This document shows positions 30,409 to 63,992 of a stretch of DNA of 64,000 nucleotides, one piece after another. The position numbers and the translations under genes are program-made. The DNA is from a virus, in the IMG/VR virus record IMGVR_UViG_3300006802_000089, positions 1-64,000 of that record; one strand, 5' to 3'. The notes below the pieces were generated by a model. That model was not told where the DNA came from and did no database searches. It saw only the letters and a program-made list of their open reading frames with translations. How positions within the stretch are numbered: position 1 is the first letter of the stretch; the number at the start of each line of letters is the position of its first letter.

Positions 30409-31569
30409 TTACATATAGTCCCATGTTATTTCAATTTCTTTTGATGTTAACGTAGGATTTTCTTCAGTACCTGATTTAATAAGAATAAATGGAAATTTTA
30501 TGGTACCTTGATTATCGGTTGTAATTAAATCTTCAACATGTTCATAAACTTTGTCGACAGTTACTCGATTCAATGCTGTAATTTTCGATAATTTTGCCGT
30601 TTCACTAACATTTACACCCATACCTTGTTTTTCGAAAAATTCAACATATGAAGTTGTCAAAAAATCCGCAGCACCAATTTCATCATCGCCGTTTATCCAT
30701 CTATCAGCTCTCTTCCATAACGGATCCCAACTTTTAAACTCGCTAAAATAAAATTCTGCATCATCATCTAGTAATTCTTTTAGTTGCTTGCAAATAGTAT
30801 ATATTTTCGAATTAAATGCAATCTGTTTATCATAATTTTTACTAGTAATACCCAATGTTTCTATAGTAGGCAAATTGTTCTTTAATGAAATTGTATAATC
30901 ACCACCATCTTTAAATCCGGCTTGATCAAAAAACATATTCCAACTGTTATTATCTTCAGTAAATATTAATTGTGTTGTTCCGGCTGAATTATCTGCAGCT
31001 TCCGAATCATCTTTTTTGTCAGTAACAGCGGTTCCTGCTGTATTTGAAACATGTATGTGATTTTCATGTCGATCTGACTCGTTGTCACCACTTTTGTACC
31101 ATAATACAGATTTAGGATTATTTGAGTTTTCTACATTGTGGGTGTACCCCATGCCACTTAGTTGTTTTTGTAATCTATCTCCTAATAGTTTAAATTTATC
31201 TGGGTTTGACTTATACGTGTATCCGTTAAATGTTGCAATATCAACGGCTGCTCCTGGAGTACGAAAATGTCTTGAGTTATCCGTATGTGGACCTTTAGTT
31301 GTGCTATTGATTACTAACTTCATAGATAGAGCAGATGCAGCTAATTCCAAATCTGCCATAAGTTTTGGATTAACATTAGTATCTAAACCAGATGCAAATT
31401 CAACACTCCATTTCGGTGCAGATGTATCGTCAGTTGTATCGTCAGATGTAGTTGTAGTGTCAGATGTAGTTGTAGTATCAGATGTAGTTGTATCTTCATC
31501 GCTCCAAACATCCACTTCTTCGTCTTGTTCTAGTAATAAATTTTTTAATAATAATTGTTTATGTTTCAT
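30409..31569 (-). CDS. Zinc metallopeptidase-like (M15/LAS) protein, possible virion muralytic enzyme
   Basis: SRH...GAAVDI and HENHIHVS motifs; N-terminal LLKNLLLEQ and Thr-rich linker. Confidence 0.6.
   Translation of the reverse strand: MKHKQLLLKNLLLEQDEEVDVWSDEDTTTSDTTTTSDTTTTSDDTTDDTSAPKWSVEFASGLDTNVNPKLMADLELAASALSMKLVINSTTKGPHTDNSRHFRTPGAAVDIATFNGYTYKSNPDKFKLLGDRLQKQLSGMGYTHNVENSNNPKSVLWYKSGDNESDRHENHIHVSNTAGTAVTDKKDDSEAADNSAGTTQLIFTEDNNSWNMFFDQAGFKDGGDYTISLKNNLPTIETLGITSKNYDKQIAFNSKIYTICKQLKELLDDDAEFYFSEFKSWDPLWKRADRWINGDDEIGAADFLTTSYVEFFEKQGMGVNVSETAKLSKITALNRVTVDKVYEHVEDLITTDNQGTIKFPFILIKSGTEENPTLTSKEIEITWDYM
31442..31495. repeat. 3 x 18-bp tandem repeat (DTTTTS linker)
   Basis: tcagatgtagttgta(gtg/gta/tct) x3. 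Confidence 0.9.
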
Positions 31570-31580
31570 ATTTTTATATG

Positions 31581-33134
31581 TTATAGTTTGTTTAAAATTG
31601 TCAATGGTTTAGTTTTACCGTCGGCTCTTTGGAAATAAAATTTATTATCAGCTGGATTTAAAATAATTTTTTCATATTTATTCTCCGCCTCTGTGGCCCC
31701 TTTTTTCTGTAAAAATCTTAATTCTTTAGTAGTTGGATCTAATGTTATACGAGCTTTATAATCGTCGGAGTCAACCGCTTCTTTTGCGTTTGCTAACATG
31801 TCTAAATACACTGCATCGGACCAAGTACCATCATCCTTTTTCAGGAACTCTTTTCCGCTGATATAATACTTAGAATATTCTAATTTTACATTTCCTTGTG
31901 CATCAACCATTGCTATTGGGCCGGATAGCTTCTCATTTGCATTGTAAAATTGTATATTTCCACTGCCATCATCATCCCACCACTGCGTTTTCCGTTCTAT
32001 CCCATTCACATAGTTAGTTTTTCGATACACGGATCCATTTTTATTAAAACCAATTTCTTCGCCTTCTTTTTTGTCATTCACATAGTAGCGCTTTTTGAAA
32101 ACAGTGCCATCCGAATGGTACTCTATTTCTTCACCTTCTCGTTTTCCATCTACATAATTTCTAATAAATTCTTCTTGTCCAGATGCATAATACTCTATTT
32201 CTTCACCTTGTAGTATACCATCTACATAGTTTCTGACTGCTTTTTTTGTTTCATTCGAGTAATAATCTGTTTCTATACCTTCTCGTTTACCATTCTTAAC
32301 ATTGGTTTTCCTGATAATCGTTCCATGCTCACCACGTGTATATGCTGTACCGTTAAATAATTCATCATTTAATTTTAACGTGCCGTCTTCGTCAGTAAGA
32401 TCTGACATTGCAACTACTTTATCTTCTGCATCTATAGGTTTTAAACGATTTACAATAGCAACTTGTATTTTCGACAATAACGTCTTAATGTCTTGTTCAA
32501 GAAGTTCAATTTCTTTTATGCGTTCATCATATGATTGTTTAGTCATGAACAAAGAAGATCCGATTACAAATTCATTGGATCTCGGACGCATTCCAGATTT
32601 AGTTTTTACAGCAACCTGTACAGTTTCAAACGTTTGTACATAACTCTGCCATCCTTGCTGTAGCGCTGCATTCTGTTGTTCATATGACTGTATTGTTTGT
32701 GCGTCGACATCTCGTGTTCCATTTTCAGCATAGTATGCTATATCAGCTTGCAATTGCTTTTGTTGAGTAATTAACGTGTTATATGCCGCTAAAATTGATT
32801 CTGCTGCCGGAATAATAATAACATCTATTTTTCTGTCGGTAAATGGAACTGTTGCTATGTATACATATGTTCCGTCTGCATACTCGCCGGATGTACCATA
32901 CGTTTCATTGTCTTTTATCGAAGCGATATTTTGCTGCATCGTGCGATTTTTCTGAAATATAGTAAATCCTTGAATATCAATATAATTAACGTTGTATACA
33001 TCTGCATATTTTTTTTGTTTATTAAGCAGTTGTGTAGATTCCCATCCGGTTAGTTTATATTTTTCGGTGCCTCCTTGCTCAAATAAATTTTCAAGAATTA
33101 TTTGTTCTAACAATATATTATTATCAAATTTCAT
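31581..33134 (-). CDS. MORN-variant repeat protein
   Basis: About five 24-aa repeats, e.g. NYVDGKREGEEIEYHSDG; N-terminal ILLEQIILENLFEQ. Confidence 0.75.
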   Translation of the reverse strand: MKFDNNILLEQIILENLFEQGGTEKYKLTGWESTQLLNKQKKYADVYNVNYIDIQGFTIFQKNRTMQQNIASIKDNETYGTSGEYADGTYVYIATVPFTDRKIDVIIIPAAESILAAYNTLITQQKQLQADIAYYAENGTRDVDAQTIQSYEQQNAALQQGWQSYVQTFETVQVAVKTKSGMRPRSNEFVIGSSLFMTKQSYDERIKEIELLEQDIKTLLSKIQVAIVNRLKPIDAEDKVVAMSDLTDEDGTLKLNDELFNGTAYTRGEHGTIIRKTNVKNGKREGIETDYYSNETKKAVRNYVDGILQGEEIEYYASGQEEFIRNYVDGKREGEEIEYHSDGTVFKKRYYVNDKKEGEEIGFNKNGSVYRKTNYVNGIERKTQWWDDDGSGNIQFYNANEKLSGPIAMVDAQGNVKLEYSKYYISGKEFLKKDDGTWSDAVYLDMLANAKEAVDSDDYKARITLDPTTKELRFLQKKGATEAENKYEKIILNPADNKFYFQRADGKTKPLTILNKL

Positions 33135-33156
33135 CGTGTATCTTTATATATAAATA

Positions 33157-33699
33157 TTACCAATCTATCATCACTAAATTACCATTCCATGTCATTATGT
33201 TGTCTGGACGAAAGTCTATATCTAATTCAAATTCCGGCACACCTGTTTTCTGCACATCTGATTCCAATGCATTAACAAAATTAATAATTTTCACGTCCGT
33301 ATCTGCAACCACATCCGTTTTAGCAAAATCAAAAACGCTCTGCTCTCCGCCGGTATCTCTTTGCCAACGTTTATATGCATTAAAAAACTGATCAAGTTGT
33401 TGTCGCATAGAACCAGGTAAATCCGAAGCTCGACTCATTATATACATGCGCTGATTGTCATTATAGTAAACAGGAATAAAAGTTGAAAATTCTGCGTGTC
33501 GACCAGTTATAATTTCAGCAACACGGAATTCATCTAGTTCTGTAGTTATTTTAAACAGATAGTCTGTTCCGTTAATTTCATAGATACGACCATTGTCTCC
33601 TTTATTAAAAAACTTGAATTGTTTTTCTTTGATTAAATCCAATAATCGTTCTATCTCACTTTCCGGAGTTTCACGTAATATGTGTGACATTCGTATCAT
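33157..33699 (-). CDS. Protein-kinase-like fold protein with N-terminal MIRMSHILRE peptide
   Basis: KGDNGRIY Gly loop, LFKIT Lys, DE helix Glu, DFRPDN catalytic loop, IDW metal-binding motif. Confidence 0.7.
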   Translation of the reverse strand: MIRMSHILRETPESEIERLLDLIKEKQFKFFNKGDNGRIYEINGTDYLFKITTELDEFRVAEIITGRHAEFSTFIPVYYNDNQRMYIMSRASDLPGSMRQQLDQFFNAYKRWQRDTGGEQSVFDFAKTDVVADTDVKIINFVNALESDVQKTGVPEFELDIDFRPDNIMTWNGNLVMIDW

Positions 33700-35321
33700 A
33701 AGTTAGGCAAATCCTTATCTAAATCTACACGAACTAAAAAGTTGATATCAACATCTTCTCGTTTTTTAATTGGTTGTGCTAGTTTTGCAACAGCAATCAT
33801 TTCATTGCGATCATTATATAAACCTATAGTTGTGATGTATGGTTGAAAATCACTACCAGTTGCAAACGAAGCTATAGTAATGTCATCGTCTAGCAGTGTA
33901 GTAGGATTAGAAGAAACGTTTAAAGAACCTCTCGGAGCTCGTACAATTACTCCTAACTCGTAAATCGTCATGGTACTTTTGTAACTTGCGGTGTAAGCCG
34001 AATCTAAAACATAACGATATCGATAATCTATGCTAGATAAAACTGCTATTCCTTGTTTTTCAAAAACATTGCCAACATGATTGGTTTGAATGAATCCCAT
34101 GGTAGACTCATTACGATCATTTAATGCACTTATATTGCTAGTTGTAAGTGACTGGTTAAATATTCTAATTTCATCCAGATATCCGGTTAAATTAAAACTA
34201 TTACTGTTATAACCACCAATATACACATCATCTGTGTTATTTATAAAAGCACTTGCCGATAATGGATTAGAAACAGGTGTTAACAGACTGCTTGTTACTA
34301 CACTTTCCAACGCACCATCCAAATACAACTGCAAATAACTACCAGATTTATTCAGAACAACATGAGTCCAATCTGTTACTGTAACAGAACTAGTTACTTG
34401 TGCGATAAAATTAGAAGCACCTGCGGCACTTGCTACGATTTGATTGCTACCACTTAATTCTATTTTGAACGGATACTGTGTGATAGATCCTGATGCTGCT
34501 TTACCGATTATGAGCTGATTGTCTGATCCAGCATTAGAAGCTGAAACAAACAAAGATACTGCATAATTGTTATCTCGATCATACAATCCCGGTACCGTTT
34601 TTCTGATATATCCGCTGCCATTAAAATATGCAGATAATCCTATACTTTCAGATAATCCTGTGTTAGTAGGAACTCCGTTAGCAAATGTTAATCCGGATAT
34701 TTCATAATCAATTCTGCTAGTATCAAAATATTCATTGAATCCTTCGTAATATTTAACGCCAGATACTATAGATGCAGTATCATAAGCAACATCATATAAA
34801 TTGCCATATCTGTCAGCTTGTATGTTAAAATCTGCAACTCCGAATCCATATATACCCGATCCATAAACTGCAGCTCCATATACTCCAGCAGTTAAAAAAT
34901 CTCCTTGTATATTAAAAGAAGCTGGTTTTATTCCTTCGCCTATTCTTGGTTGTGGAATTGAAAAAACAGATGCAGATTTAAACAATATCTTTGTAGTTCG
35001 TTCTGCATTGTTTTGTCCGAAAGTATTGTATGGCTCGTCTGCTCTTCGATAAAATAAATGATCTAAAGAATCGTATATAATAAACTGATAAGATCCATTT
35101 GGGTTAGTAGCATCATTAAACGGCACACTACTGCTTATTGCTGGTAATCCATCTACATGTATCGCACGTAAAGGAGTTACATAACTTGAATCACTACCAG
35201 AATAAAAAGTCCAAGTACGATATGCCTTAAACGGATTAACAGTAACATCCGATTGCCGTACTCGATTATACGGCGTTGCAAATGTTCTGTCAATTGTTTC
35301 TAATAGATTTATTGTAGACAT
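33696..35321 (-). CDS. LamG/concanavalin-domain tail/baseplate protein
   Basis: WTHVVL...LYLDG...YIGG...GYLDEIRIFN LamG pattern; C-terminal YITTIGLYN..EMIAVAKL. Confidence 0.75.
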   Translation of the reverse strand: MSTINLLETIDRTFATPYNRVRQSDVTVNPFKAYRTWTFYSGSDSSYVTPLRAIHVDGLPAISSSVPFNDATNPNGSYQFIIYDSLDHLFYRRADEPYNTFGQNNAERTTKILFKSASVFSIPQPRIGEGIKPASFNIQGDFLTAGVYGAAVYGSGIYGFGVADFNIQADRYGNLYDVAYDTASIVSGVKYYEGFNEYFDTSRIDYEISGLTFANGVPTNTGLSESIGLSAYFNGSGYIRKTVPGLYDRDNNYAVSLFVSASNAGSDNQLIIGKAASGSITQYPFKIELSGSNQIVASAAGASNFIAQVTSSVTVTDWTHVVLNKSGSYLQLYLDGALESVVTSSLLTPVSNPLSASAFINNTDDVYIGGYNSNSFNLTGYLDEIRIFNQSLTTSNISALNDRNESTMGFIQTNHVGNVFEKQGIAVLSSIDYRYRYVLDSAYTASYKSTMTIYELGVIVRAPRGSLNVSSNPTTLLDDDITIASFATGSDFQPYITTIGLYNDRNEMIAVAKLAQPIKKREDVDINFLVRVDLDKDLPNL

Positions 35322-35324
35322 AGT

Positions 35325-35361
35325 AAAAACCCGTTACACTTTATTATAAATATAACGGGTT
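35325..35361 (-). terminator. Terminator-like hairpin with a late-promoter motif in its loop
   Basis: Minus strand AACCCGTTA-tatttataataaagtg-TAACGGGTT-TTT. Confidence 0.65.
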
Positions 35362-35381
35362 CAAATTGTGATGTTATTTTT

Positions 35382-36533
35382 TTAGTAATCTAATTTAACA
35401 CGAATCAATTGCTCTCTTGCAAAGTTTTTAAGAAGTGGCTTACTCATTTTTGCAACTGCTAACAATTCATTTTTCTCATTATACAATCCTACGGTTGTGA
35501 TATAAGATTGCGGATTTCCGATAAATGTGCTTTGCGCAAGTAATCCGTCAGAACCGGTTGTGTAAGAAGGATTGTTTGAGAAATTGTACTGGCCGTTTTT
35601 AACTCGTACAAAATAATTAGCACTAGTTATTTGTTGTGAATTTCGAGCTTGGAATCCGGTTGCAGAACCAGAAATAGAATGGAACAATGCAAAATGATTG
35701 CTACCTTCTGAATCTGACGTTGTATTAGTACTGAAATTCAATTGTTGATCCAACATTTTTCCGTCTAACACCATTACTCCATAATCTGGATAAAATAATC
35801 CGTAATAAACCGGAGCTGATGCATTAAAGACACCATTAGCTAATGAGCCAGATACAATATTATATACACGTCCAGATACTCCTACCGTTGCACTAGCAAT
35901 TGACGAGTCATCGATCAATGTAATAGATCCGCTATCTGCAGTTACTGTTACAGAACCAGTAGCATTTGTATCTCGTACGTCAATACCTATTAATGGTAAT
36001 TCAAAGTTTCCTTCATCTAATCTTTCTTTTACTCTGTTACGTTTAACATTGATAACATAGATTGAATCAGTACTACCAGATCCTGCAGTAACAAATCTAG
36101 ATGCTCCTTTTTCTAGTAGTAAATTTTTATATTGTGCATAAATTGCTTTTGACGCTGGATTTTCTTCTGTTCCTAAATCAGATGATCCAGATCCTAATGC
36201 ATGACCATATGCTGCAGCAAATTGAACTGCAGAACCATCGCTGCTAGGAGCATCATCGTAAATGTCGACATAATAACGTCGTTGTGATGTTGTCTGGGCC
36301 GAAGCTGTAAAAAATGTTGTTAAACTACCTACATTGCCTGACCATAATCCTGCAGTCACTGTTTGTTTGCTGTTAGTAACTACGTCATCGGGAGAAAATA
36401 CAGTATATGTATCTGTAGATACTTGTGATGCTAATAAATCAGCTAACGAATTAGTGTTTGTTATTATATTATTAGGATCGGCTATTCGGCCTTGTCTAGG
36501 AAGTTGTTTTAATTTTGAAATCAATGTTTTCAT
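35382..36533 (-). CDS. Tail/baseplate structural protein
   Basis: C-terminal YITTVGLYN..ELLAVAKMSKPL.K, paralogous to 33696..35321. Confidence 0.6.
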   Translation of the reverse strand: MKTLISKLKQLPRQGRIADPNNIITNTNSLADLLASQVSTDTYTVFSPDDVVTNSKQTVTAGLWSGNVGSLTTFFTASAQTTSQRRYYVDIYDDAPSSDGSAVQFAAAYGHALGSGSSDLGTEENPASKAIYAQYKNLLLEKGASRFVTAGSGSTDSIYVINVKRNRVKERLDEGNFELPLIGIDVRDTNATGSVTVTADSGSITLIDDSSIASATVGVSGRVYNIVSGSLANGVFNASAPVYYGLFYPDYGVMVLDGKMLDQQLNFSTNTTSDSEGSNHFALFHSISGSATGFQARNSQQITSANYFVRVKNGQYNFSNNPSYTTGSDGLLAQSTFIGNPQSYITTVGLYNEKNELLAVAKMSKPLLKNFAREQLIRVKLDY

Positions 36534-36555
36534 ATTTTATTTATTTTTATACGTC

Positions 36556-37191: not shown

Positions 37192-37241
37192 ATTCTTTTC
37201 TTTTTATATAAATATATACATGTTTAATTTATTGATTCATA

Positions 37242-53312: not shown

Positions 53313-53336
53313 ATAACGATGTTTTTTAATTTTCGT

Positions 53337-53345
53337 ATATTTATA
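53337..53345 (+). promoter_or_regulatory. Class I (late) motif ATATTTATA on plus strand
   Basis: Orientation flips with the plus-strand gene at 53368. Confidence 0.65.
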
Positions 53346-53367
53346 ATAAATAAAATAGAATGTATAC

Positions 53368-54609
53368 ATGATACGGTTAAAACATTTATTAATTGAACAA
53401 ACACGTGTTTCTCCAACTACTTACAACACTGTGTCTATTGAAACAACGATGCAAACTTTGACAAGGGACATTGCTAATTATAATCCTAATACTGGTTATA
53501 TTGCAATAACCAATGGTAATCTATGGCTAGCAACACAACGATCTAATTCTTTAAGAGATTTATTATTGCAGCCAGAAACACAAGAGAGTATTGGTATTAC
53601 AAGACCCATAAACCCTAATTGGATCCGAATCCAGCCACCTACAGTACAAGGAGAAGGCCAAGCCAATCAGAAAGTTGTAGGAACATTACAAGCTAGATTA
53701 TTTCGTCCGGAGGAAAGACAAGAAGAATATCCGTATCAAATCAATTATGAATGGCATGAAATAAATAATGTTCCTCATATCCTTGTTACAAAACAAGGAT
53801 TAGGTGCACCTCAACCGCATAATGTTAATAAAACAGGAGCTAATAGTGAATTGGATGTCAATAAAGATACTGCTGTGTATAATAAAATGAAACAATTCCA
53901 AAACAAAATTCCGGAAAATAATACGAAGATCTTAAGAGCTCTTTCAGGAGCCGGAACAGCACAAGGCCCAGTTTACACGGATACTACATGGGGTATCATG
54001 ATACCAGTACCTCAGGATCTTTATAAATATGTTGCAAAACAAGGAACATTTATATATTTTACAGAAGAACAAAAAGATAGTTATATTAAAACTAAAGATA
54101 TGATAACAAAATATGTAGATAATACAGGAATTAGAACAGGTGAAAACTATACTGATTTTACTCAGGTTCGTGGCAGTGGAGATACTCAGTTTGGAAACAC
54201 AACGGGTAGGTCTGCAACTGCATGGGACAAACAAGGAAATTATAATAATAGTTCACAAGTAAACGTTGTATCATATGATAAATCTACAACTGGTAATGTT
54301 CCTGGCCAGGTTATATCTGGCAAAGAGGAAAAATGGGAAACATTGGATGTTATTAACTTAGATGAAAATTATTTTATAGCAAACATGATAAGTTTGAAGC
54401 CGGATACATATAATACTATATTTGCAAATATAAAAAATATATTAGCAAACAAATTTGAACAAGAACAACTAGCATTCGTAGATTTAGCAGTTACAATACA
54501 AGGATTTGCATCAACAGCCCGTGCTACTAACAGATTATCCGGTGGTCTCACAACTCCTGATCATGATTACGGCGGCCGCGTGCCAGCAAATCTTTGGATA
54601 TATAGGTAA
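53368..54609 (+). CDS. Putative packaged protein (MIRLKHLLIE) with OmpA-C-like segments in permuted order
   Basis: NLWLATQRSNSLRDLL near N-terminus; VTIQGFAS near C-terminus. Confidence 0.55.
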   Translation: MIRLKHLLIEQTRVSPTTYNTVSIETTMQTLTRDIANYNPNTGYIAITNGNLWLATQRSNSLRDLLLQPETQESIGITRPINPNWIRIQPPTVQGEGQANQKVVGTLQARLFRPEERQEEYPYQINYEWHEINNVPHILVTKQGLGAPQPHNVNKTGANSELDVNKDTAVYNKMKQFQNKIPENNTKILRALSGAGTAQGPVYTDTTWGIMIPVPQDLYKYVAKQGTFIYFTEEQKDSYIKTKDMITKYVDNTGIRTGENYTDFTQVRGSGDTQFGNTTGRSATAWDKQGNYNNSSQVNVVSYDKSTTGNVPGQVISGKEEKWETLDVINLDENYFIANMISLKPDTYNTIFANIKNILANKFEQEQLAFVDLAVTIQGFASTARATNRLSGGLTTPDHDYGGRVPANLWIYR

Positions 54610-54631
54610 ATACTTAATTCTGTTAAAATTA

Positions 54632-55195: not shown

Positions 55196-55234
55196 GGCTT
55201 TAATTTTTAATTTGTTAACTATTTAATTTTATAT

Positions 55235-55263
55235 ATTATATGTAATATTTTTCACAAATCCAA
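55235..55263 (-). promoter_or_regulatory. Class II promoter TTGGAT-N17-TATAAT (CAP gene)
   Basis: Direct sequence match. Confidence 0.6.
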
Positions 55264-55287
55264 ATATCACTGAAATTAAAAACGAAT

Positions 55288-55296
55288 ATATTTATA
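55288..55296 (+). promoter_or_regulatory. Class I (late) motif ATATTTATA, 4 nt before ATG
   Basis: Plus-strand orientation matching gene 55301. Confidence 0.65.
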
Positions 55297-55300
55297 TTAA

Positions 55301-56749
55301 ATGATTAGATTAGCCGATATACTGAAAGAATCCGAATATGCTCATTACCGCAATCTGCGTTACGGATTAACGGAACAAGAAGAAGGCAATTGGTTTACTA
55401 ACTGGATAAAAGACGCTGGCCAAGAATATGTTAAATATAAAAAAGCTGAAACTGAAGCACATATGGAACTGGCTCGTAAACTATACGAATATCGACATGG
55501 CCTTTTAGATATAGCAGAAATAGCAACTCTTTTCTGGCCTCCGGTATCTGCAGCAATAGGTGCCGCTCATGCTGGACTATATTTTTATGAAGGCGATCCT
55601 GAAATGGGTGTTTTATATTTAGTATTTGCTGGAATGACAGGACTTCCTCCTGCACCAATTAAATGGCTAGCTAAATATATAAAAGCTCTTAAAACCGGCG
55701 ATCAAGTCGTAGCAAAAAGTATTGAACAGGGACTAGGACAAACTGAAAAAAAAGCATTAGAAAAAATGTCTGAAATGGGTGCAAGAAAATCAGGAGAAGA
55801 GGTAGTAAAATGGACATCAAAAGGCCTGGCTCAAAACGCTGATTTTTTTGCTAGAGAGGCATTTAGCAATCAAATAGGCAAATTTGCATCTAAATTGCCA
55901 GCACAATCATTAAAACCATCATATGGTCGAGTAGTATTAAATATACTCAAATATATATTCAGATACGCAGGGAAATTTTTGCTCGGTGGATCTAAGTTTG
56001 TCGGCACACTATATGTATTTCATCATATTTTAAAAGTGTATCATTGGTTATGGGAAACGTATTATTACGTCGGACAGAGTCCAGAAGAATTTAGTAAAGA
56101 ATTAGGATTAGACAACACAATAAATTGGGATTCAGCAGATCCAATATTAAAACAAGTGATTACTGGTGAGTCTACTGAAAAAAATACTATTAAATTATCA
56201 AGTTTAATATCAGAAAACTCAAATATGCCTGATTTCCTAGGAAAAATATTCGATGCAGTCGAAGATTGGTCATCACAATTAGATGAAACGTCAAACTCAA
56301 TTATTGAACTAATGACAACTAAATCAGAGTTGTCTGACAATGAAATTAAATCGATAGCTAAGACTATACTAAGTAAACACATGGATATGAGCAATGCGCC
56401 TAGAAAAAAACGAGCATATATAGATTCTGGTGATGTTACTCAGTCTGTAGCTGCAACTGATCCAAATGCAAAACAAGCTGCAGCTGCATTATACAAGTCC
56501 ATGAAAGGCTTAGGCACCGACGAAACATTGTTGTTTAAAACTTTACAAGACATGATAGATAATCCAACTTGGGGATATCAAGCAGTTGTCGAATTTAATA
56601 GTAACTCAAAATACAATGAGGGTGATGATTTAAAATCCTGGTTAGAAGGTGATTTATCATTTGGATCAGAACGAAAAGCATTGGAAATGCTTGATCAGAT
56701 CATGAATACTGCTAATAATACTAGTAACTCCGGCGGTGGTGGATGGTAA
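55301..56749 (+). CDS. Putative packaged protein: targeting peptide, pre-toxin-TG-like hydrophobic segment, C-terminal annexin repeat
   Basis: MIRLADILKE; HGLLDIA...LYFYEGD; AAALYKSMKGLGTDETLL...DLKSWLEGDLS. Confidence 0.65.
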   Translation: MIRLADILKESEYAHYRNLRYGLTEQEEGNWFTNWIKDAGQEYVKYKKAETEAHMELARKLYEYRHGLLDIAEIATLFWPPVSAAIGAAHAGLYFYEGDPEMGVLYLVFAGMTGLPPAPIKWLAKYIKALKTGDQVVAKSIEQGLGQTEKKALEKMSEMGARKSGEEVVKWTSKGLAQNADFFAREAFSNQIGKFASKLPAQSLKPSYGRVVLNILKYIFRYAGKFLLGGSKFVGTLYVFHHILKVYHWLWETYYYVGQSPEEFSKELGLDNTINWDSADPILKQVITGESTEKNTIKLSSLISENSNMPDFLGKIFDAVEDWSSQLDETSNSIIELMTTKSELSDNEIKSIAKTILSKHMDMSNAPRKKRAYIDSGDVTQSVAATDPNAKQAAAALYKSMKGLGTDETLLFKTLQDMIDNPTWGYQAVVEFNSNSKYNEGDDLKSWLEGDLSFGSERKALEMLDQIMNTANNTSNSGGGGW

Positions 56750-56768
56750 AATATAAATAATAAAAATT

Positions 56769-58343
56769 ATGATACGATTAAAAAGAATACTAGAACAAAA
56801 ATCTTCATATAGTAACATTGATAAGTTAGATAAAAATTTCGAAATTAAATTATCAAGCTTGATATCAGAACAAATCACAGATACAAATCAAGCCGGTAAA
56901 ACAGTAGACGCAGCTGCGGCAGATTTACACGATTCAATGGATTGGCTGGGAACAGACGAAGACTTATTATTCGCTACTTTAAAAGCAATGGCTGATGAAC
57001 CGGCTTGGGGTCAACAAGTTATCGATCGATTTAATAGTGCTGAGAAATACAGTGAAGGTGATGATTTGAATGATTGGTTGGATGGAGATTTGTCTGGCAA
57101 TGATTTGACAAAAGCAAAGGCGTATATAAAGACCATCGAAGCTGTATCGTCCGATCAACAAGAATCGAAATCGATTGATGAAAAATTAATGCTAGAAATA
57201 AGAGAAAACGCACAACAGCTTTATGGAGCTCCATCTGAAGATTTAGCGGACCAGATATTCGGTTGGCTTTGGTGGGAGAATGGATTAAAGATATTAGGAG
57301 TTTTAACAATTGCGCTGGCTGCAGGTGCTGGCCTGGAGAGGCTGGGGGTGGACCTGAAAAACACTGCCCTAGGTAAGGGTGTTAAAAAGTTACTTGCAAT
57401 ACCGGGATGGATTTTTAAAAAAGCATGGATTAGTGGAGTGTCATGGCCCTTATTCCGAGGTGTTTTAAGAATTCCTTCAAAATATATGCCATGGCTGATC
57501 AAATTTTCAAGTAAAACATTTCAACGAAACTGGATTAAAGAATCGTTATTAAAACCATTTCGCAATGTTATGAATAAATACGAAAAAGAATCCTATGAAC
57601 ATACAAAAATAAAAACATGGATAGACAATATTTCAGTTGCCTTAGATAAAGAATCTGATACTGTAGATGCATTAGTAACCAGTGTATATAATAAACTAAA
57701 AACATCTGCTTATGAAGTATTATATAATCTACGCAATGGAAAGATGTCGCAGTACGCCACCCTGCCGGCCAGCATGGAAGCGGGTTTTGTAGAAATTTTA
57801 GGAGATTTATATCGAATAGATCCAGCAAGATTTGGTAAATCATTTGCAGAAGAGATGATGACAAAATTAGAAGTCACAGCTGAAAGTCGTTCTAAAATTT
57901 TAGCTGAATTAGAAAAGTTTTATCCAAAAGTTGAAAAAGAATCGGAAACAATAATTCGAGCGTACAAAGAATTGCCTACGGCAGTAAAAGAATTACCAGG
58001 ATATGAAAATATATATAACAGATATTCTAACAAAATAGCAAATGCTGAAGAAACAATTGAATTATTATATAATAATATAAAAACTGGAAATTTAGGGCCT
58101 GGTTCCGGACTTCCAAATTACTTTAATCGAATTGCTAACTCGATCGAGCGGCCGTCGACAACCAATCCATCCAAATGGTATAATGAGTTTGGTCAATATT
58201 CTGATAACGTTCGTATTCAAATAGGTTGGGATCCTATTAAACAACGGCCGTTTGACCACGCTGTGAAAAGATTTCAAAACGAGATGAACCGAGATCAGAT
58301 GTTATGGGATCTTAACAATACCATGAAATCAGCTATTAAATAA
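56769..58343 (+). CDS. Putative packaged protein: targeting peptide, annexin repeat, TM segment
   Basis: MIRLKRILEQ; AADLHDSMDWLGTDEDLL...DLNDWLDGDLSG; ILGVLTIALAAGAGL. Confidence 0.65.
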   Translation: MIRLKRILEQKSSYSNIDKLDKNFEIKLSSLISEQITDTNQAGKTVDAAAADLHDSMDWLGTDEDLLFATLKAMADEPAWGQQVIDRFNSAEKYSEGDDLNDWLDGDLSGNDLTKAKAYIKTIEAVSSDQQESKSIDEKLMLEIRENAQQLYGAPSEDLADQIFGWLWWENGLKILGVLTIALAAGAGLERLGVDLKNTALGKGVKKLLAIPGWIFKKAWISGVSWPLFRGVLRIPSKYMPWLIKFSSKTFQRNWIKESLLKPFRNVMNKYEKESYEHTKIKTWIDNISVALDKESDTVDALVTSVYNKLKTSAYEVLYNLRNGKMSQYATLPASMEAGFVEILGDLYRIDPARFGKSFAEEMMTKLEVTAESRSKILAELEKFYPKVEKESETIIRAYKELPTAVKELPGYENIYNRYSNKIANAEETIELLYNNIKTGNLGPGSGLPNYFNRIANSIERPSTTNPSKWYNEFGQYSDNVRIQIGWDPIKQRPFDHAVKRFQNEMNRDQMLWDLNNTMKSAIK

Positions 58344-58348
58344 ATTTA

Positions 58349-58900
58349 TTATTTCTTAACAAATCCGTTCAAAAAGTCTTTTTGCCGTTGAACTGCTTGA
58401 TCTAATTCGGTATTTTTTCGTTTAACAGATTTTGATTTTTTCTTAGTGTCATTTGAAGTGCTGCGGTTAGCAGCATTTTTTGTGGCATCAGATTTTCTTG
58501 ATGTGCTAGTTGTATTTGAGCGGTCATTGCTATTAGAATCTGATCTAACGCCTGTTGTTTGAGTTGGTATGCTATCAGTTGTCCTTCTGGACTCTGCATG
58601 TATTGTTCTATCCGCAGTTTCTGGTTTAACTCCTCGGCGGACCGTTTCTGATTCGAGTAGGATACCGTAGTCTGCGTGTTCCGACTTGTAATCACCGATT
58701 TGAATGCCGCACGTATACGTGAAACCAGCTGCTTTAATTTTGTAACGAACATGTTCATGTGTTTTATATGTTTCTACTAGTTCTCCACGAATAAATTCGC
58801 CTAACCAAGTCATACACACAAAATCTCCAGGATTGAATTGTGGTTTTTTGAATTTTGCCTGTATGTACTTAGGAACTTCTTGTTTTTTCTTTTTTGCCAT
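58349..58900 (-). CDS. Hypothetical protein (SH3-like N-terminus, Ser/Thr/Lys-rich tail)
   Basis: PQFNPGDFV...G.LV...RYKI pattern. Confidence 0.55.
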   Translation of the reverse strand: MAKKKKQEVPKYIQAKFKKPQFNPGDFVCMTWLGEFIRGELVETYKTHEHVRYKIKAAGFTYTCGIQIGDYKSEHADYGILLESETVRRGVKPETADRTIHAESRRTTDSIPTQTTGVRSDSNSNDRSNTTSTSRKSDATKNAANRSTSNDTKKKSKSVKRKNTELDQAVQRQKDFLNGFVKK

Positions 58901-58901
58901 A

Positions 58902-59387
58902 TCAATTAGGACATAAAACCGGATTGATACCGATTATGCTATAAACTCGTAGATATTTAGTTAATTTGTCTTTGCGAAACACTTTTTCGGTGTTTAAATC
59001 TCTGCTCAAGATATATCCGTTATCAAAGAAATTGTATACTATGTGACGTAAAGCCTTCAAGCTATTAGATTCCAATAAAACTTGTTCTTCATCTATCAGT
59101 ATGTCTACTCGTTTATGAGTTTCGGGTATATCTTCCGATTCAACTTCAAAATACCCTCGTTCTGAATCATCGTCATCGTCTGGATCTTCTTCTAAATTTT
59201 TAGTTAATTCATCAAAGAAGTCTCCTAGTATTTGCGAAAAGCCATCTTTCTGGATGGCATCATGTGATTCGAATATATCTGCTAGATATTGAAATTTTTC
59301 TGCCGGACTATGTTTCAACATGCTTTGGTATTCTTTTTTGCTAACCTTGATATGTTGAAAAACATTTTTCATTGCATTATACTTCAT
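58902..59387 (-). CDS. Hypothetical protein
   Basis: 161-aa ORF in operon. Confidence 0.6.
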   Translation of the reverse strand: MKYNAMKNVFQHIKVSKKEYQSMLKHSPAEKFQYLADIFESHDAIQKDGFSQILGDFFDELTKNLEEDPDDDDDSERGYFEVESEDIPETHKRVDILIDEEQVLLESNSLKALRHIVYNFFDNGYILSRDLNTEKVFRKDKLTKYLRVYSIIGINPVLCPN

Positions 59388-59544
59388 CTGTTACGGTATA
59401 TAGTTTCATGAATTCATTTACGTGCAGATTCTTAATTTTCGCAAAATGTTCTGCTGCTTCGTAAATATTGAAAGCTTTGCATTTTGCTATGATTTCCTTC
59501 GAAGAATCATTGCTAGCATAAAAGCCGAATACTATCTTGTCCAT
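59377..59544 (-). CDS. Small hypothetical protein (55 aa)
   Basis: Not in track; MDKIVFGFYASNDSSKEII...EAAEHFAKIKNL...EFMKLYTV. Confidence 0.65.
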   Translation of the reverse strand: MDKIVFGFYASNDSSKEIIAKCKAFNIYEAAEHFAKIKNLHVNEFMKLYTVTDEV

Positions 59545-59547
59545 TTA

Positions 59548-59925
59548 TTATAAATATAATCCAAGTTGGTACTTCCTCTGAATGCTGGTGATAGTATCTT
59601 CTATAGTTTCATATAATCGATTCAATTCCGTTACATTTAAACGAACATATTTTGACTTAAGTTTGATCTCATGTTCATTCATAGGCAATTGCACTGCCTC
59701 TGCAATAGATGTTTTTAAAACGGTTTGCATGAAAGATAAATCACGCATAGTAACTTCTTCTCGTTGTCCTGCTACTATCAATGTTCCAATCACCGTAGAT
59801 TGTGGATTTTCTAAAAAATTCTTTTCTAGTATATCCTTGAATTCGAAATCAATTTCTGCCCAAGTATTGCCATATTTCTCTCGATATTTATCAGATATAG
59901 CCCAAGGTTGGTTTACGCTGTTCAT
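59548..59925 (-). CDS. Hypothetical protein
   Basis: 125-aa ORF. Confidence 0.6.
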   Translation of the reverse strand: MNSVNQPWAISDKYREKYGNTWAEIDFEFKDILEKNFLENPQSTVIGTLIVAGQREEVTMRDLSFMQTVLKTSIAEAVQLPMNEHEIKLKSKYVRLNVTELNRLYETIEDTITSIQRKYQLGLYL

Positions 59926-60014
59926 ATTTGTATTTATTTTATTCGTTTTTGTTTGATTATTGTGTTCATATAACTTATTAGGTAGTTAGATCAGACGTTG
60001 TTATAAGTGCGGTA

Positions 60015-60287
60015 TTACCTAGTATACGGTAATTGTTCATTTTCTAACAATTCGTCATACGGTATCGTGCATTGTATTTCTCCGCTATCTATTAGCATCT
60101 TAGTTAGATTGCGATCTATAAAAATTCGATTGGATCTTGCAGTGTTCACACAAGTTACACATGACCTGGATTCTAATAGCACATCATAATATGCATTTTT
60201 ATGAATTAGAAACTTTTTGATAACTACTCCTACTTCGTTTTTACCTTCGTTATTAACGATAACCATATTTCCTTCTTTGTATGCCAT
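60015..60287 (-). CDS. SH3-like hypothetical protein
   Basis: YKEG..V....VGVVI.....YYDVLLE. Confidence 0.55.
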   Translation of the reverse strand: MAYKEGNMVIVNNEGKNEVGVVIKKFLIHKNAYYDVLLESRSCVTCVNTARSNRIFIDRNLTKMLIDSGEIQCTIPYDELLENEQLPYTR

Positions 60288-60496
60288 TATTCGATAATTT
60301 TAATGATTTTACTTTGTGTAACTCCTTTAACTTCGTAATCAAACCGATAACCTGCAAAGTCTTTTATTACTTTTGATTCTGCTTCTGTAACAGATAGTGC
60401 TTCTACCAAATATGTTTCGGTAATTTTCTTTTCTTTTACTCCTTTTGGAGTATCAATCTCGTCGATTAATTGTACTTTTGCAACATAATATGCCAT
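60287..60496 (-). CDS. DUF4494-like protein (Bacteroidota-type)
   Basis: YY.AKV...KK.TE.YLVEALSVTEAE...EV..V..SKI pattern. Confidence 0.75.
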   Translation of the reverse strand: MAYYVAKVQLIDEIDTPKGVKEKKITETYLVEALSVTEAESKVIKDFAGYRFDYEVKGVTQSKIIKIIE

Positions 60497-60520
60497 AACC
60501 TTTAAAATTTATTTAGTTTC

Positions 60521-60556
60521 TATAAATAATATAGAAAATTTACAGGAAATATCCAA
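60521..60556 (-). promoter_or_regulatory. Tandem class II (TTGGAT-N17-TATATT) and class I (TATTTATA) promoters
   Basis: Direct sequence match to both consensuses. Confidence 0.55.
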
Positions 60557-60564
60557 TCGAATAA

Positions 60565-61524
60565 CTATTTTTTAACAAGATTTTTCAATCTGTTCTGACT
60601 TCGATAAAAAGTATAAGATCTTAATATTTGATTTGGAGTTAAACCAAAATTATGTGCTAAATTATCTAGTATATCTGCTACTAGGTGCTCTTTATCTAGC
60701 GTATTATATATTTTACCACTTAAATTTTTAATAATTTTTTCTAACAATGTTAAATATCCACCAGGTAACCGATTTAACACTCTAGATTTTGCAACTCGAC
60801 CTGAAAATGTTTCATTTCCACGTTGTTCATTAATTATTTTTTGTGCTACTTTTACTGTTTCTCGAAGAATTTGTGGATATGTATATTGCATATGCACATA
60901 ATCATCAGTTTCCATTATCAAAGTACCATCTTTACGGAAAGATTCTTCAGGACCTTCATCAGGTATATCTGCTCCTTCTTCTGGAACTTCGGCTCCTATA
61001 GGTTCTGCGCCTGGTTCTCCTCCGGTATCCGGAGCTGGTTCTGGTGCTCCTCCTCCTCCAGTATCTAAATCTGCGGTAGTCATTCCTCCTCCTCCGGTAA
61101 AATCAGAGCCGCCACCGGTATCCATTGCTCCTCCGCCGGCGCTAGCATCTGCACTTTCTTCTCCGTCTGTGCTAAAAGCAGCTAAATCTTCGGTAGGTAC
61201 ATTGCATTTTATAGTATAATCTGTATTTCTGCTGTAACCAGTATAAGGAACTATACTAATTACTTTGGCTCGTAACAACTGGGTTAATACGTCAGTAGTT
61301 AAATTATACATTGCACCACTTCTGTTTATGAATTCTTGTATGCCGGCTGGCGATAATGAATATAGTATGCCTAATGATTGATTCTGTGTTTTTCCAAACT
61401 GTCCTAAAAACTTTTGTTGTTCTGGAGTATATACCGATTCTTTCCCGGTAATTTCAATTTCTTTACTGGTATTTTCTGCCTCTGCTAGAATTTCATTCAA
61501 TATTTCTTCGAATAACTCTCTCAT
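60565..61524 (-). CDS. Putative internal head protein with Gly/Pro/acidic linker
   Basis: ILNEILAE, LIMET, ILRET, IINEQ sites. Confidence 0.55.
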   Translation of the reverse strand: MRELFEEILNEILAEAENTSKEIEITGKESVYTPEQQKFLGQFGKTQNQSLGILYSLSPAGIQEFINRSGAMYNLTTDVLTQLLRAKVISIVPYTGYSRNTDYTIKCNVPTEDLAAFSTDGEESADASAGGGAMDTGGGSDFTGGGGMTTADLDTGGGGAPEPAPDTGGEPGAEPIGAEVPEEGADIPDEGPEESFRKDGTLIMETDDYVHMQYTYPQILRETVKVAQKIINEQRGNETFSGRVAKSRVLNRLPGGYLTLLEKIIKNLSGKIYNTLDKEHLVADILDNLAHNFGLTPNQILRSYTFYRSQNRLKNLVKK

Positions 61525-61715
61525 ATATCTTTTGCTTCATTTAAACATGCAGTACGATAATTTCCAGATAATTTTTTTAATTCTAAAATAGATTTTCTCG
61601 CACGACTACCTGCAGCTTTCACACGTTTATTGTAAAAACGAGTATGATTTTCTTCAAAAGTTTCCCAAAGCTGTTTCATTTGTGTGTATAATTCTTGTGA
61701 ATCCATATCAATCAT
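61521..61715 (-). CDS. Histone H1-like (Hc1-type) small DNA-binding protein
   Basis: KAAGSRARKS.LELKKL...YR motif. Confidence 0.7.
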   Translation of the reverse strand: MIDMDSQELYTQMKQLWETFEENHTRFYNKRVKAAGSRARKSILELKKLSGNYRTACLNEAKDI

Positions 61716-61917
61716 TTAAAATTGCGTTTCTTTCTAAATCTACATGTGCAGATGCAATACGTTCTGCTAATGTTATATAGGGCTGAAATGTAATTATTTC
61801 TAATCCGCTACTAAGTTTTACCGTAGTAGAATTATTATTGTTACAAAGATATACTATATGTTCCGTGTTTACCATGTATTGGTATCCGTCTTCGTCAGTT
61901 ATTTGTATGAGCTTCAT
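61708..61917 (-). CDS. FlbD-like small beta protein
   Basis: I.IT...G....VN.EHI.Y.....T.V.LSSG pattern. Confidence 0.5.
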   Translation of the reverse strand: MKLIQITDEDGYQYMVNTEHIVYLCNNNNSTTVKLSSGLEIITFQPYITLAERIASAHVDLERNAILND

Positions 61918-61940
61918 ATATAAACATTTAATCTAATATT

Positions 61941-62366
61941 TTATGCACTAGCAGACCGGTTAGGATTCATTGGATCATATGGACCGGAAACGGTGCTAGG
62001 ATCAATTTCTATGTCAGTACCTGTTGGTCTAGATGATGCATCTGCATCAGATCCTTCTAATTCGGCTCTATTGATAGTAGCACCAGGCAACTGATCTAGT
62101 TCTTTTACTAGTCCTTCTAGATATGATTGTGAAGCTCTACCATGTTTCAACCAATCTAATATCTGAAACCAAGTTTTTGTACTACCTCCAGATGTATATG
62201 TAAAATCTACTGGAAATACTTCTTTGTTATTTTTCATCCAATCTATAATTTTTACATAATGTAATTGATTTGCTGTAGCTTCTTTGATAATTCGTTTGGC
62301 TCTAGCAATTTCTTCAGCTATAATCTGCTGGTGTCTAGGATTGGTTAAATCTAATAGTTTTATCAT
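61941..62366 (-). CDS. Hypothetical protein, possible packaged protein
   Basis: MIKLLDL..., IIAEE, RIIKEA sites. Confidence 0.55.
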   Translation of the reverse strand: MIKLLDLTNPRHQQIIAEEIARAKRIIKEATANQLHYVKIIDWMKNNKEVFPVDFTYTSGGSTKTWFQILDWLKHGRASQSYLEGLVKELDQLPGATINRAELEGSDADASSRPTGTDIEIDPSTVSGPYDPMNPNRSASA

Positions 62367-62725
62367 TTTAAATTTTCTAGTTTATATATTGTACTATAAA
62401 TTAATTCAATTACTCCATCATATAAATTTTGTAAATATGAATCTTCTGGCAATTTATTGTATGCTTTTTCTGAAAACAATGCTAATCCTTTGAAATAATT
62501 AACAATATTTTTATCTCCGTAATTTTCAAATTTTGCCGGCGCAGTATAATTCATTAATATGCCATGCTTACCTTGGTACGCTTCGACAATTGCATCTATC
62601 ATATCAACTATACCTTCATAATAACCTTGTAATGCTACATGTTCGGCATAAGATTTTGTTTGCAAATGATAAATATGTGCTTGTGTTCTACTTGCAAACA
62701 ATGTAGATATAAATTTTTCTATCAT
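62363..62725 (-). CDS. Ferritin/Dps-like four-helix protein (DUF5856-like)
   Basis: QAHIYHLQT.SYAEH.AL..YY......D..VEAYQG, YKL motifs. Confidence 0.75.
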   Translation of the reverse strand: MIEKFISTLFASRTQAHIYHLQTKSYAEHVALQGYYEGIVDMIDAIVEAYQGKHGILMNYTAPAKFENYGDKNIVNYFKGLALFSEKAYNKLPEDSYLQNLYDGVIELIYSTIYKLENLK

Positions 62726-62757
62726 GATTAATATTCTTTATTATAAATATATGTATA

Positions 62758-62922
62758 TTAGTTTTCTGGTACTGTTATAACAATTTCATTGTCTTTGCGT
62801 TTTAGTTTGAAATCACTAGGTATTAATCGTTCAAGATATTCTTGGTAATACTGATTTCGATCGAACCTTGGTTTCTCAGATTTTTTCTTTTTTTCGGATA
62901 TTATGTCTCGTAAACTAATCAT
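62758..62922 (-). CDS. Small protein (54 aa) with MISLRDIISE peptide
   Basis: Not in track; ATGA overlap with stop of 62919..63221. Confidence 0.65.
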   Translation of the reverse strand: MISLRDIISEKKKKSEKPRFDRNQYYQEYLERLIPSDFKLKRKDNEIVITVPEN

Positions 62923-63221
62923 GTAATATTCTGATAATCTAAGTAACGTTCAATGAATTTATATGCTTGTGCGGTATCAAACAGTTTATGTCGATATTTT
63001 AAATAGCCTATGAATTCCTCCGGAGAATCTGAATTGTTTCTCATACTCATTAAAGTGTCATAACGATTCCATGCAGTTATGTCTTCATTATCTACTAAAT
63101 CATCAAGTTGATTTTCTAACCATTCTTCATAGTTACCTAGTATGGTTTCAAAATTATCACGAACCAAATCGACCACATCTTCATGTGCTGTTTCTGTCAA
63201 TATGTCTCGTAATCGTATCAT
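62919..63221 (-). CDS. Putative packaged protein (MIRLRDILTE)
   Basis: 100 aa; late motif 4 nt upstream. Confidence 0.6.
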   Translation of the reverse strand: MIRLRDILTETAHEDVVDLVRDNFETILGNYEEWLENQLDDLVDNEDITAWNRYDTLMSMRNNSDSPEEFIGYLKYRHKLFDTAQAYKFIERYLDYQNIT

Positions 63222-63236
63222 TTAATATAAATATGA

Positions 63237-63992
63237 TTACATGTTAGGATCGCCAGGTGTATCTATTCCATCGGTAGTGAATTTGACATCGATTGGTTTA
63301 CCTATCGTGCTTTTGCTAGGTACAGGAACGTTGCCTTGCATTATCGGATTAGATTGTGCTTGCAAATCAAACAATACAAACTTACCATGTTTAGTAAAAC
63401 CTACGTTACCTCCATGGGCTTCGCTGAAATTTATATTCATAGCACGCACATCTTGTAACACTTTTTGTCGTTGATCAATTATAGTATTTAACTGATTGTA
63501 CACATCTTGTGTTATGCTATTTTTAGAAAGATCATAATCAATCGATCTTCGAAGATCACTGTCCGGCCGCGATGACGAAAAATACATATATTTAATTCCA
63601 TCCCATGCATCTTGCATTTCTGATGTTAACGGAGTTACGCGATCCATGTATATAGCATATATATGATTATATATAGTTTGAATATCGTTTGAATCTTCAC
63701 TAGGAAGACGAAATGCGGCTAAAGGTCTCACACTATATATATTAATCAGATGTGGACGTCTGGCTCTTTTTGATATTCGAGCAGCTAATGCAGCTTCGTT
63801 CTGATCTGCGGTAAATTTAATTACTTTGCCTCGCTGAGTAGCAATTGCTTGTCCATAATATCCGCCTCCTAGCCATTCTGCCGGCGAATCTGCAAATTGA
63901 TCAAATATCATCTTCAGTGTTTCTGGCTGTCTTAATTCACCATACACTTTGGTCAAGTTCGTTTCATTCAATATTTGTTTAAGTAGTATCAT
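63237..63992 (-). CDS. Protein-kinase-like fold protein with MILLKQILNE peptide
   Basis: LGGGYYG Gly loop, VIKFT, NE, EAHGGN loop, FDL motif. Confidence 0.65.
   Translation of the reverse strand: MILLKQILNETNLTKVYGELRQPETLKMIFDQFADSPAEWLGGGYYGQAIATQRGKVIKFTADQNEAALAARISKRARRPHLINIYSVRPLAAFRLPSEDSNDIQTIYNHIYAIYMDRVTPLTSEMQDAWDGIKYMYFSSSRPDSDLRRSIDYDLSKNSITQDVYNQLNTIIDQRQKVLQDVRAMNINFSEAHGGNVGFTKHGKFVLFDLQAQSNPIMQGNVPVPSKSTIGKPIDVKFTTDGIDTPGDPNM

Follow-up and report, generated by a model that had tools for sequence, protein, structure and literature searches.

A ten-residue N-terminal leader shared by diverse proteins of an uncultured T4-like phage: a probable capsid-targeting signal

A shared N-terminal leader on a T4-like phage contig

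We analyzed the first 64 kb (positions 1 to 64,000, hereafter the window) of IMG/VR virus record IMGVR_UViG_3300006802_000089, a 74.4-kb contig (G000) with a completeness estimate of 44%. Six genes in the window start with the same short peptide, M-I-x-(L/M)-x-x-(I/L)-(I/L)-x-E, in which Glu is residue 10. Based on the observations described below, we suggest that this leader, M-I-(R/K/S)-L-x-x-(I/L)-(I/L)-x-E, is probably the lineage's version of the capsid-targeting sequence (CTS) of phage T4, serving both as a capsid-targeting and as a protease-processing signal. An earlier note on this DNA had proposed a packaging signal. A real phage-specific N-terminal peptide on diverse late proteins, ending in a gp21 motif in a phage with a gp21-type protease, stands from that proposal, whereas its idea of a different code does not, and its labels for the cargo fared unevenly.

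The contig encodes together a gp23-family major capsid protein (8990-10663, minus strand; Pfam Gp23, E = 2.9e-75), a gp20-type portal (15156-16994; Pfam Portal_T4, E = 1.5e-68), an S77 prohead protease of the gp21 family (13069-13707, minus strand) and a gp22-like scaffold (10694-11692, minus strand), the gene for the latter being placed between the protease and capsid genes. A T4-type large terminase is found at 17112-18620. The closest isolates are Flavobacterium phage vB_FspM_immuto (immuto; capsid protein 54% identical), Microcystis phage Mel-JY01 and Rhodothermus phage RM378. Because of its capsid, portal, terminase and protease genes and these closest isolates, the contig is, by sequence, a fragment of a distant T4-like myovirus, and the full genome is probably about 160-170 kb long. 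Two complete relatives, G001 (159.6 kb, with terminal repeats) and G002 (176 kb), were used for comparison. Genes are named here by their low coordinate, which for minus-strand genes is the stop end of the open reading frame (ORF), as quoted in the earlier note.

All seven N-termini quoted in that note are present as written. On the plus strand, MIRLKHLLIE (53368-53397) starts a protein of 413 amino acids (aa) at 53368-54609, MIRLADILKE (55301-55330) a protein of 482 aa at 55301-56749, and MIRLKRILE (56769-56795) a protein of 524 aa at 56769-58343. On the minus strand, MIRMSHILRE (encoded at 33670-33699) starts a protein of 180 aa with a minimal kinase-like body at 33157-33699, MISLRDIISE (62893-62922) a small basic protein of 54 aa at 62758-62922, whose start overlaps the stop of the preceding gene, MIRLRDILTE (63192-63221) a protein of 100 aa at 62919-63221, and MILLKQILNE (63963-63992) a protein of 251 aa at 63237-63992. 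Glu is residue 10 in six of them and residue 9 in 56769. Three further leader proteins are encoded on this contig shortly beyond the end of the window, at 63999-64697 (MISLKHIIE, Glu at 9), 64713-65474 (MIKLKRILTE) and 66031-66570 (M-H-MRLTSLITE).

The strict pattern [ILV]x[ILM]xx[ILV][ILV]xE directly after Met1 matched at the N-terminus of 7 of the 102 ORFs on the contig, against an expectation of 0.02 (P about 5e-16). Hydrophobic residues at positions 4, 7 and 8 together with Glu at 10 are found in six window proteins and in 64713. The expectation was taken from internal positions, where the pattern occurred 5 times in 22,132. Since the pattern was written after seeing the contig data, its replication without change in G001 and G002 is the fair test. 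G001 gave six exact N-terminal matches and two more at likely true starts, and G002 gave eight N-terminal matches, with about 0.02 expected in each. A scan of the full genome and its relatives had been proposed in the earlier note; on the contig and in both complete relatives it gave an N-terminal excess. In phage immuto (NC_055915), two to three leader ORFs were found, among them 24569-24994 (MIKLIDLLTE) and 103366-103806 (MISIYNILKE). The sharing of the leader is far beyond chance.

Among the five internal matches on the contig, one is in the scaffold, two are near the N-termini of 30409 and 31581, and 55301 and 56769 contain one each (IKLSSLISE). Four genes had been listed earlier as looser variants. 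Two of them fit the pattern at an offset, namely 30409 (30409-31569, minus strand, 386 aa), with LLLKNLLLE as residues 6-14 (31528-31554), and 31581 (31581-33134, minus strand, 517 aa), with ILLEQIILE as residues 7-15 (33090-33116) and repeats of the MORN type that stay below the Pfam threshold. The other two, 60565 and 61941, have only a generic (I/L)(I/L)xE and are not clear members.

Late motif and selection on the peptide

The motif ATATTTATA occurs in 27 copies on the contig, nearly always in the orientation of the gene and a few to 25 nucleotides (nt) ahead of structural genes, and from this position we infer that it acts as a late promoter. An example at 55288-55296 (plus strand) lies ahead of leader gene 55301, and other copies near leader genes are at 53337-53345 (plus strand, 23 nt upstream of 53368), 63226-63234 (minus strand) and 33149-33157 (minus strand). 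Across four genomes, TATTTAT was found within 45 nt upstream of 15 of 25 leader genes and of 117 of 718 other genes (odds ratio 7.7, P = 1.8e-6), in agreement with the earlier statement that several of the leader genes sit behind the late motif. The contig leader genes that have no motif of their own directly follow late-motif genes on the same strand, and there are no leader genes in an early-type array at 67-74 kb. The leader genes' association with this motif suggests late expression.

The conserved residues of the leader are encoded by synonymous codons: Ile2 by ATA, ATT or ATC, Arg3 by CGA, CGG, CGT or AGA, and Leu4 and Leu8 by five codons each. In addition, the distance between the late motif and the leader gene is 5, 17 or 23 nt, and some leader genes lack a promoter of their own. 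Because of the synonymous codons and the variable spacing, selection acts on the peptide rather than on the DNA, so that the leader, judged from its codons, is a peptide-level N-terminal signal.

If the similarity were driven by nucleic acid, the peptide would be a by-product of a start-of-gene element in late mRNAs or of a cassette recombination joint. This would agree with the late motif standing 4 nt before the ATG in 55301, 62919, 63999 and 64713, whose mRNAs may have almost no 5' leader, and with the cassette joints in the 62.7-66.6 kb array, which combine tail, promoter and leader. However, every conserved leader residue shows synonymous codon diversity, the DNA of the tail likewise differs among copies at synonymous sites, the motif spacing is variable as given above, and the leader peptide motif also occurs inside proteins. 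We therefore set the DNA-level explanation aside on the codon diversity and regard it as very improbable.

In the same four leader genes, and also in 59377-59544, only 4 nt separate the end of the late motif TATTTATA from the ATG (TATTTATATTAAATG), as seen at 55288-55303 (plus strand) and 63219-63234 (minus strand) and, further along the contig, at 64695-64710 and 65472-65487. In T4 late promoters, transcription starts 6-7 nt downstream. If transcription starts likewise here, mRNAs with the 4-nt spacing may be leaderless or nearly so.

Distribution of the leader

A degenerate DNA pattern coding for M-I-(R/S)-L-x-x-I-(L/F)-x-E was run on IMG/VR and on 596 Gb of bacterial and archaeal genomes. 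In IMG/VR, at least 118 loci match. Among the viral matches listed, 109 of 120 open an ORF of at least 50 aa and 84 of 120 are clean gene starts, while among the bacterial and archaeal matches listed only 17 of 120 are in an ORF of at least 50 aa and 4 of 120 are clean starts, two of these four being in a phage family. Since the pattern is rarely a gene start in the bacterial and archaeal matches, the leader does not appear to be a host sorting signal. Judged from these matches, it is phage-specific and widespread.

Near the viral matches we observed extra leader ORFs that are outside the reach of the DNA pattern (MIKL..., MILL...), and the leader ORFs in the IMG/VR loci comprise at least 45 unrelated body families. 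Distant metagenomic homologs of 53368 carry another form of the leader, MKQNLLNE, which also ends in hydrophobic-x-Glu. A tblastn search of isolate phages returned no homologs of 33157 or of P0011, one of these distant homologs of 53368. For 64713, no related loci were found in IMG/VR, and a search for homologous proteins gave three only. A literature search found no description of this leader.

Similarity to the capsid-targeting sequence of T4

In T4, IPI, IPII, IPIII, Alt and gp24 carry the CTS, and the gp21 prohead protease cuts it off (Mullaney and Black 1996; reviews: PMC9026906, PMC3012670 and PMC5694885). The cut falls after L/I-x-E (PMC9026906). In the CTS of IPIII, targeting depends on residues 4 and 7 and processing on residues 8 and 10 (PMC9026906). 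The positions conserved in the leader (4, 7, 8 and 10) are the same ones, and its end is L/I-x-E. When the generic pattern M..h..hh.E was applied to T4 N-termini as a positive control, it recovered IPII, IPIII, gp24 (MAKINELLRE) and Alt (MELITELFDE). The earlier note had taken the leader for a different address code. Because the same positions are conserved and the T4 carriers are recovered, we instead consider it a dialect of the T4 code.

The likeness extends beyond the positions. Both signals take up about ten residues at the extreme N-terminus, both phages have an S77 protease, a gp22-like scaffold and a gp23 capsid protein, and in both cases the tag is common to unrelated proteins that turn over fast, with an Alt-like ADP-ribosyltransferase among the tagged proteins of a relative. 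However, the two signals differ in several respects. First, the consensus is MIRLKxILxE here, compared with MKTYQEFIAE, MELITELFDE and MAKINELLRE in T4. Second, there are 10-12 carriers per genome here and about 5 in T4. Third, the bodies here are mostly acidic enzymes or unknowns, not small basic proteins. Finally, two carriers here contain internal double sites and a subset has a C-terminal tag. On the T4 side, we also noticed that the hypothetical protein gp61.1 (NC_000866, 18966-19130, 54 aa) starts MKTFKEFIKE, close to the CTS of IPII and IPIII, MKTYQEFIAE.

The gp21 homolog reported earlier at 13069 was recovered with Pfam Peptidase_S77 (E = 2.6e-33 over 13069-13707), and it has a conserved L-x-E near its own N-terminus (LNE, residues 18-20). 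We propose this protease as the enzyme that would remove the leader. In T4, gp21 enters the prohead core as a zymogen, and the core is where it works (PMC9026906, PMC5694885). Since it acts inside the prohead, cleavage of a protein by a gp21 homolog would place that protein in the prohead. Among larger leader-bearing IMG/VR contigs, 14 of 24 encode an S77 protease, including all those estimated to be at least 45% complete and both complete genomes, and the ten without it are fragments estimated to be 8-40% complete.

Candidate substrate sites are present in the other head proteins. The scaffold has an internal LELQEIIAE followed by LEE (11246-11272), and the corresponding islands are LNIESIIRE-LEG in G001, LEEILRE-LEE in G002 and IDINELLAE-LEG in immuto. 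Within an acidic middle region that is otherwise poorly conserved among them, all four genomes thus keep the (I/L)(I/L)xE site with LE(G/E) in the equivalent place, and three of the sites fit the full strict pattern. In the capsid protein, GLLE, QLLE and LVKE lie in the N-terminal region of about 57 residues that precedes the conserved mature core. Without its conservation, the scaffold site would by itself be weak evidence, and we regard these substrate motifs as supportive but not decisive.

The scaffolds of all four phages also have a common C-terminus, ...(W/L/M)(K/Q)(K/R/Q)LAG(L/I). Two other proteins, encoded at 82462-84195 and 168019-169308 of G002, have a scaffold-type ...LAG(L/I) end, and one of them bears the leader. 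This end may be a shared shell- or core-binding tail.

If the leader is a capsid-targeting signal, proteins made late would carry it into the prohead. Its hydrophobic face (residues 2, 4 and 7) would dock them on the scaffold core during prohead formation, and the S77 protease would then cut after (I/L)-x-E at residues 8-10, as it would in the scaffold and in the propeptide of the capsid protein. Once mature, the bodies would remain in the head and exit with the DNA at the next infection. The proteins 55301 and 56769, which contain the site internally as well, would be split into separate modules. We infer docking, cleavage, virion residence and injection of the leader proteins by analogy with T4. 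A role of the cargo in host takeover or anti-defence, taken one step further from the kinds of enzymes that bear the leader, is plausible.

Alternatively, the leader could be a recognition tag for another phage or host factor, such as a modifying enzyme, a chaperone, or a membrane or secretion route, unrelated to capsid loading. A chaperone candidate exists in the phage GroEL/ES of immuto, the tightly coupled C-terminal tag described below gives leader proteins at least one further signal, and lysozyme and peptidase-like bodies would suit an export route. However, the leader is too weakly hydrophobic for a Sec, Tat (twin-arginine translocation) or SAR (signal-arrest-release) signal, and the pattern is nearly absent from bacterial gene starts among the matches listed. 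Its conserved positions match those of the T4 CTS, it always ends in hydrophobic-x-Glu, and the scaffold has a matching site. We thus consider a tag of this kind unlikely. A tag for a radical-SAM maturase was set aside: the complete relatives have no radical-SAM gene other than a QueE-like one (270 aa, without a SPASM part), which belongs to the deazaguanine DNA-modification pathway. In RiPP-like (ribosomally synthesized and post-translationally modified peptide) radical-SAM systems one short N-terminal peptide also heads many unrelated proteins, but the complete relatives have no SPASM-type maturase, and the leader here has a protease-motif end and a counterpart in the scaffold.

The giant phages phiKZ, 201phi2-1 and SPN3US offer another comparison, as their ejection and inner-body proteins are processed by gp175/gp245 (PMC5694885, PMC7411985, PMC10052503). 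In that system, many head-internal proteins are cut after Glu by a gp21-related protease, the propeptides are thought to target the prohead and can have multiple sites, and paralogs keep their N-termini while their bodies diverge. However, those propeptides mostly exceed 100 residues and their motif is S/A/G-x-E, while the leader here is short, of T4 length, with a hydrophobic P3 residue.

The Dar anti-restriction proteins of phage P1 are packaged in the head, delivered with the DNA and counter host defence. P1 is not T4-like, and it packages them through an ordered Dar/Hdf set rather than with one short leader and an S77 protease.

Proteins carrying the leader

The bodies behind the leader turn over quickly. 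G001 is syntenic with the contig and its capsid protein is 76% identical, yet 33157 is the only contig leader gene with an ortholog there, and G001 has a leader set of its own. The internal-protein loci of T-even phages show the same cargo turnover (PMC3012670, PMC9026906). Small podophages and pelagiphage HTVC008M contain one of the leader-body domains without any leader, and because the domain occurs without it, the leader is a separable add-on.

The leader proteins of the contig had been called unrelated. In an all-against-all BLAST comparison most of the bodies indeed share no similarity, but 63237 and 64713 are paralogs (E = 1e-19), 55301 and 56769 share a domain (E = 2e-19), and 33157 is remotely related to 63237 and 64713 by a profile match. 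Such paralogs would be expected if the leader proteins were diverged copies that have retained an ancestral N-terminus. Against this, most bodies lack detectable mutual similarity, the body families counted in relatives include unrelated Pfam domains, and in the 63237 family the leader and tail are invariant while the body is 29-35% identical. We consider such common descent extremely improbable as the source of the leader.

Searches of Pfam, PHROGs and NCBIfam gave nothing usable for the leader proteins of the contig, and 63999 and 64713 had no matches in ESM Atlas and PDB sequence searches. The kinase fold named in the earlier note has no Pfam or NCBIfam match. It is moderately supported for 33157 by motifs and weak Foldseek matches, and for 63237 by motif; kinase-like motifs are also found in 64713. 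The 33157 family has 12 members, in which M1, I2, R3, L8 and E10 are invariant. They contain GDNGR(V/I)Y, F-K-I-T, D-x-x-x-D-N and a terminal (L/M/V)(I/V)DW whose Asp and Trp are invariant. An AlphaFold2 model of 33157 (predicted local distance difference test score, pLDDT, 67) gave top Foldseek matches that are all kinase folds, such as APH and the minimal effector kinases NleH and OspG, with weak E values of 7e-3 to 6e-2.

In 55301, a hydrophobic middle is followed by leader-like ILKQVITGE (56144-56170) and IKLSSLISE (56189-56215) and then by an annexin-like module. In 56769, a second site, IKLSSLISE at 56844-56870, precedes an annexin-repeat-like segment (residues 49-111), which matched annexin IV over a single repeat in a phmmer search of PDB sequences (E = 0.002). 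The annexin repeat proposed earlier is therefore weakly supported, with one repeat and no Pfam match at E 0.01. The two proteins resemble permutations of modules, in that the annexin-like module and double site are C-terminal in 55301 and N-terminal in 56769, with the hydrophobic module on the opposite side. An OmpA-like protein, also proposed earlier, was not recovered: no leader protein has a matching Pfam or PHROG profile, and the AlphaFold2 model of 53368 (pLDDT 64) matches no PDB fold.

The body of 30409 (30409-31569, minus strand) holds SRHFRTPGAAVD ... HENHIH, by eye similar to the H-x(n)-D / H-x-H arrangement in cell-wall peptidases of the LAS type (M15-like). From this SRH...D / HxH arrangement it is possibly a cell-wall peptidase, a reading without support in Pfam, NCBIfam or PDB sequences.

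Among the leader bodies of relatives are a Zeta_toxin domain, which begins at residue 11, two lysozyme types, a body weakly matching NT5C, and an ADP-ribosyltransferase whose sequence can be aligned to that of T4 Alt at YRG...FVSTSL. Many of them are potentially toxic enzymes (zeta-toxin-like, ADP-ribosyltransferase, wall hydrolases), and in the zeta-toxin family the leader directly abuts the catalytic domain. The leader might then be a removable propeptide only, a zymogen lock or stability tag for toxic enzymes that act in the producing cell, with no capsid address. However, T4 gp21 acts inside the prohead, ten residues are few for a zymogen lock, and the leader is also found on the 54-aa and 100-aa proteins and on bodies without enzyme features. 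This explanation is hard to separate from a capsid-targeting signal, and we consider it decidedly improbable.

Here, we need to consider several points that weigh against a capsid-targeting signal. First, the link with the S77 protease is partly a clade effect, as any gene typical of T4-like phages would co-occur with the leader, and other phages with S77 proteases (T4, HTVC008M) use other leaders or none of this kind. Second, L/I-x-E is short, and about 3-4 internal pattern matches per proteome are expected by composition. Third, neither the isolates nor the literature yielded a virion proteome from a phage with the leader. Fourth, most mature bodies are acidic (pI, isoelectric point, 4.2-6.9; 90-515 residues), unlike the basic DNA-associated internal proteins of T4. 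The leader proteins show no sequence similarity to those proteins, and only 62758 (44 mature residues, pI 9.6) fits the small basic type of IPI-III. T4 also packages Alt and foreign proteins fused to the CTS. Finally, some bodies resemble ordinary metabolic or lysis enzymes (NT5C-like, lysozymes), which are not necessarily virion cargo.

If the leader works as in T4, it would be a ten-residue 'signal peptide' for the head cargo of widespread aquatic T4-like phages, and their payload could be listed from sequence: kinase-like, zeta-toxin-like and ADP-ribosylating enzymes, wall hydrolases and many unknowns. No part of phage-host warfare is less accessible than the head payload, and new anti-defence proteins are likely to be found in it. 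The leader could also be used for packaging when such phages are engineered. Since the concept dates back to work on T4 in the 1990s, the gain lies in the breadth, the new consensus and the unexpected C-terminal tag and not in a new principle.

A C-terminal tag coupled to the leader

Four proteins of the contig end in GIDTPxxPxM, namely 63237, in which the tag is GIDTPGDPNM (63240-63269), and the three leader proteins just past the window (63999-64697, 64713-65474 and 66031-66570). The extended consensus, found on proteins with different bodies, is (K/P)YD(A/W)SGIDTP(G/N)(D/N)PxM-stop. When IMG/VR was scanned with a DNA pattern for the tail only, independently of the leader, 43 distinct ORFs were obtained. 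Among the 35 tag-bearing ORFs that are complete at the N-terminus, 30 have a strict leader and 2 a near-leader (32 of 35 together). The tail has no Glu and thus is not a gp21-type site. The nearest precedent is T4 Alt, which is processed at both ends (PMC9026906).

One tentative and rather doubtful possibility is a two-signal sorting code, in which the leader would load the head and the coupled C-terminal tag would mark a subset for a second step. Under such a code, the second step could be docking at the portal for an ordered first ejection or binding of a host target after injection. If true, the two tags would allow a sequence-only listing of injected effectors in a large uncultured group of aquatic T4-like phages.

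Other features of the contig

Two paralog groups on the contig were noted in addition. Beyond the window, positions 67900-73100 hold an array of small ORFs with internal paralog subfamilies (e.g. 68212, 71780 and 72391; E = 1e-14 to 1e-22). The leader is on none of the ORFs in this array, and the late motif is absent from the region. Near the other end of the contig, at 410-2215 on the minus strand, three tandem paralogs of about 198 aa (mutual E = 1e-33 to 9e-16) start with M-x-x-x-I-x-DGTG and adjoin fibre-like genes, and this trio is probably a variable receptor-binding or decoration set.

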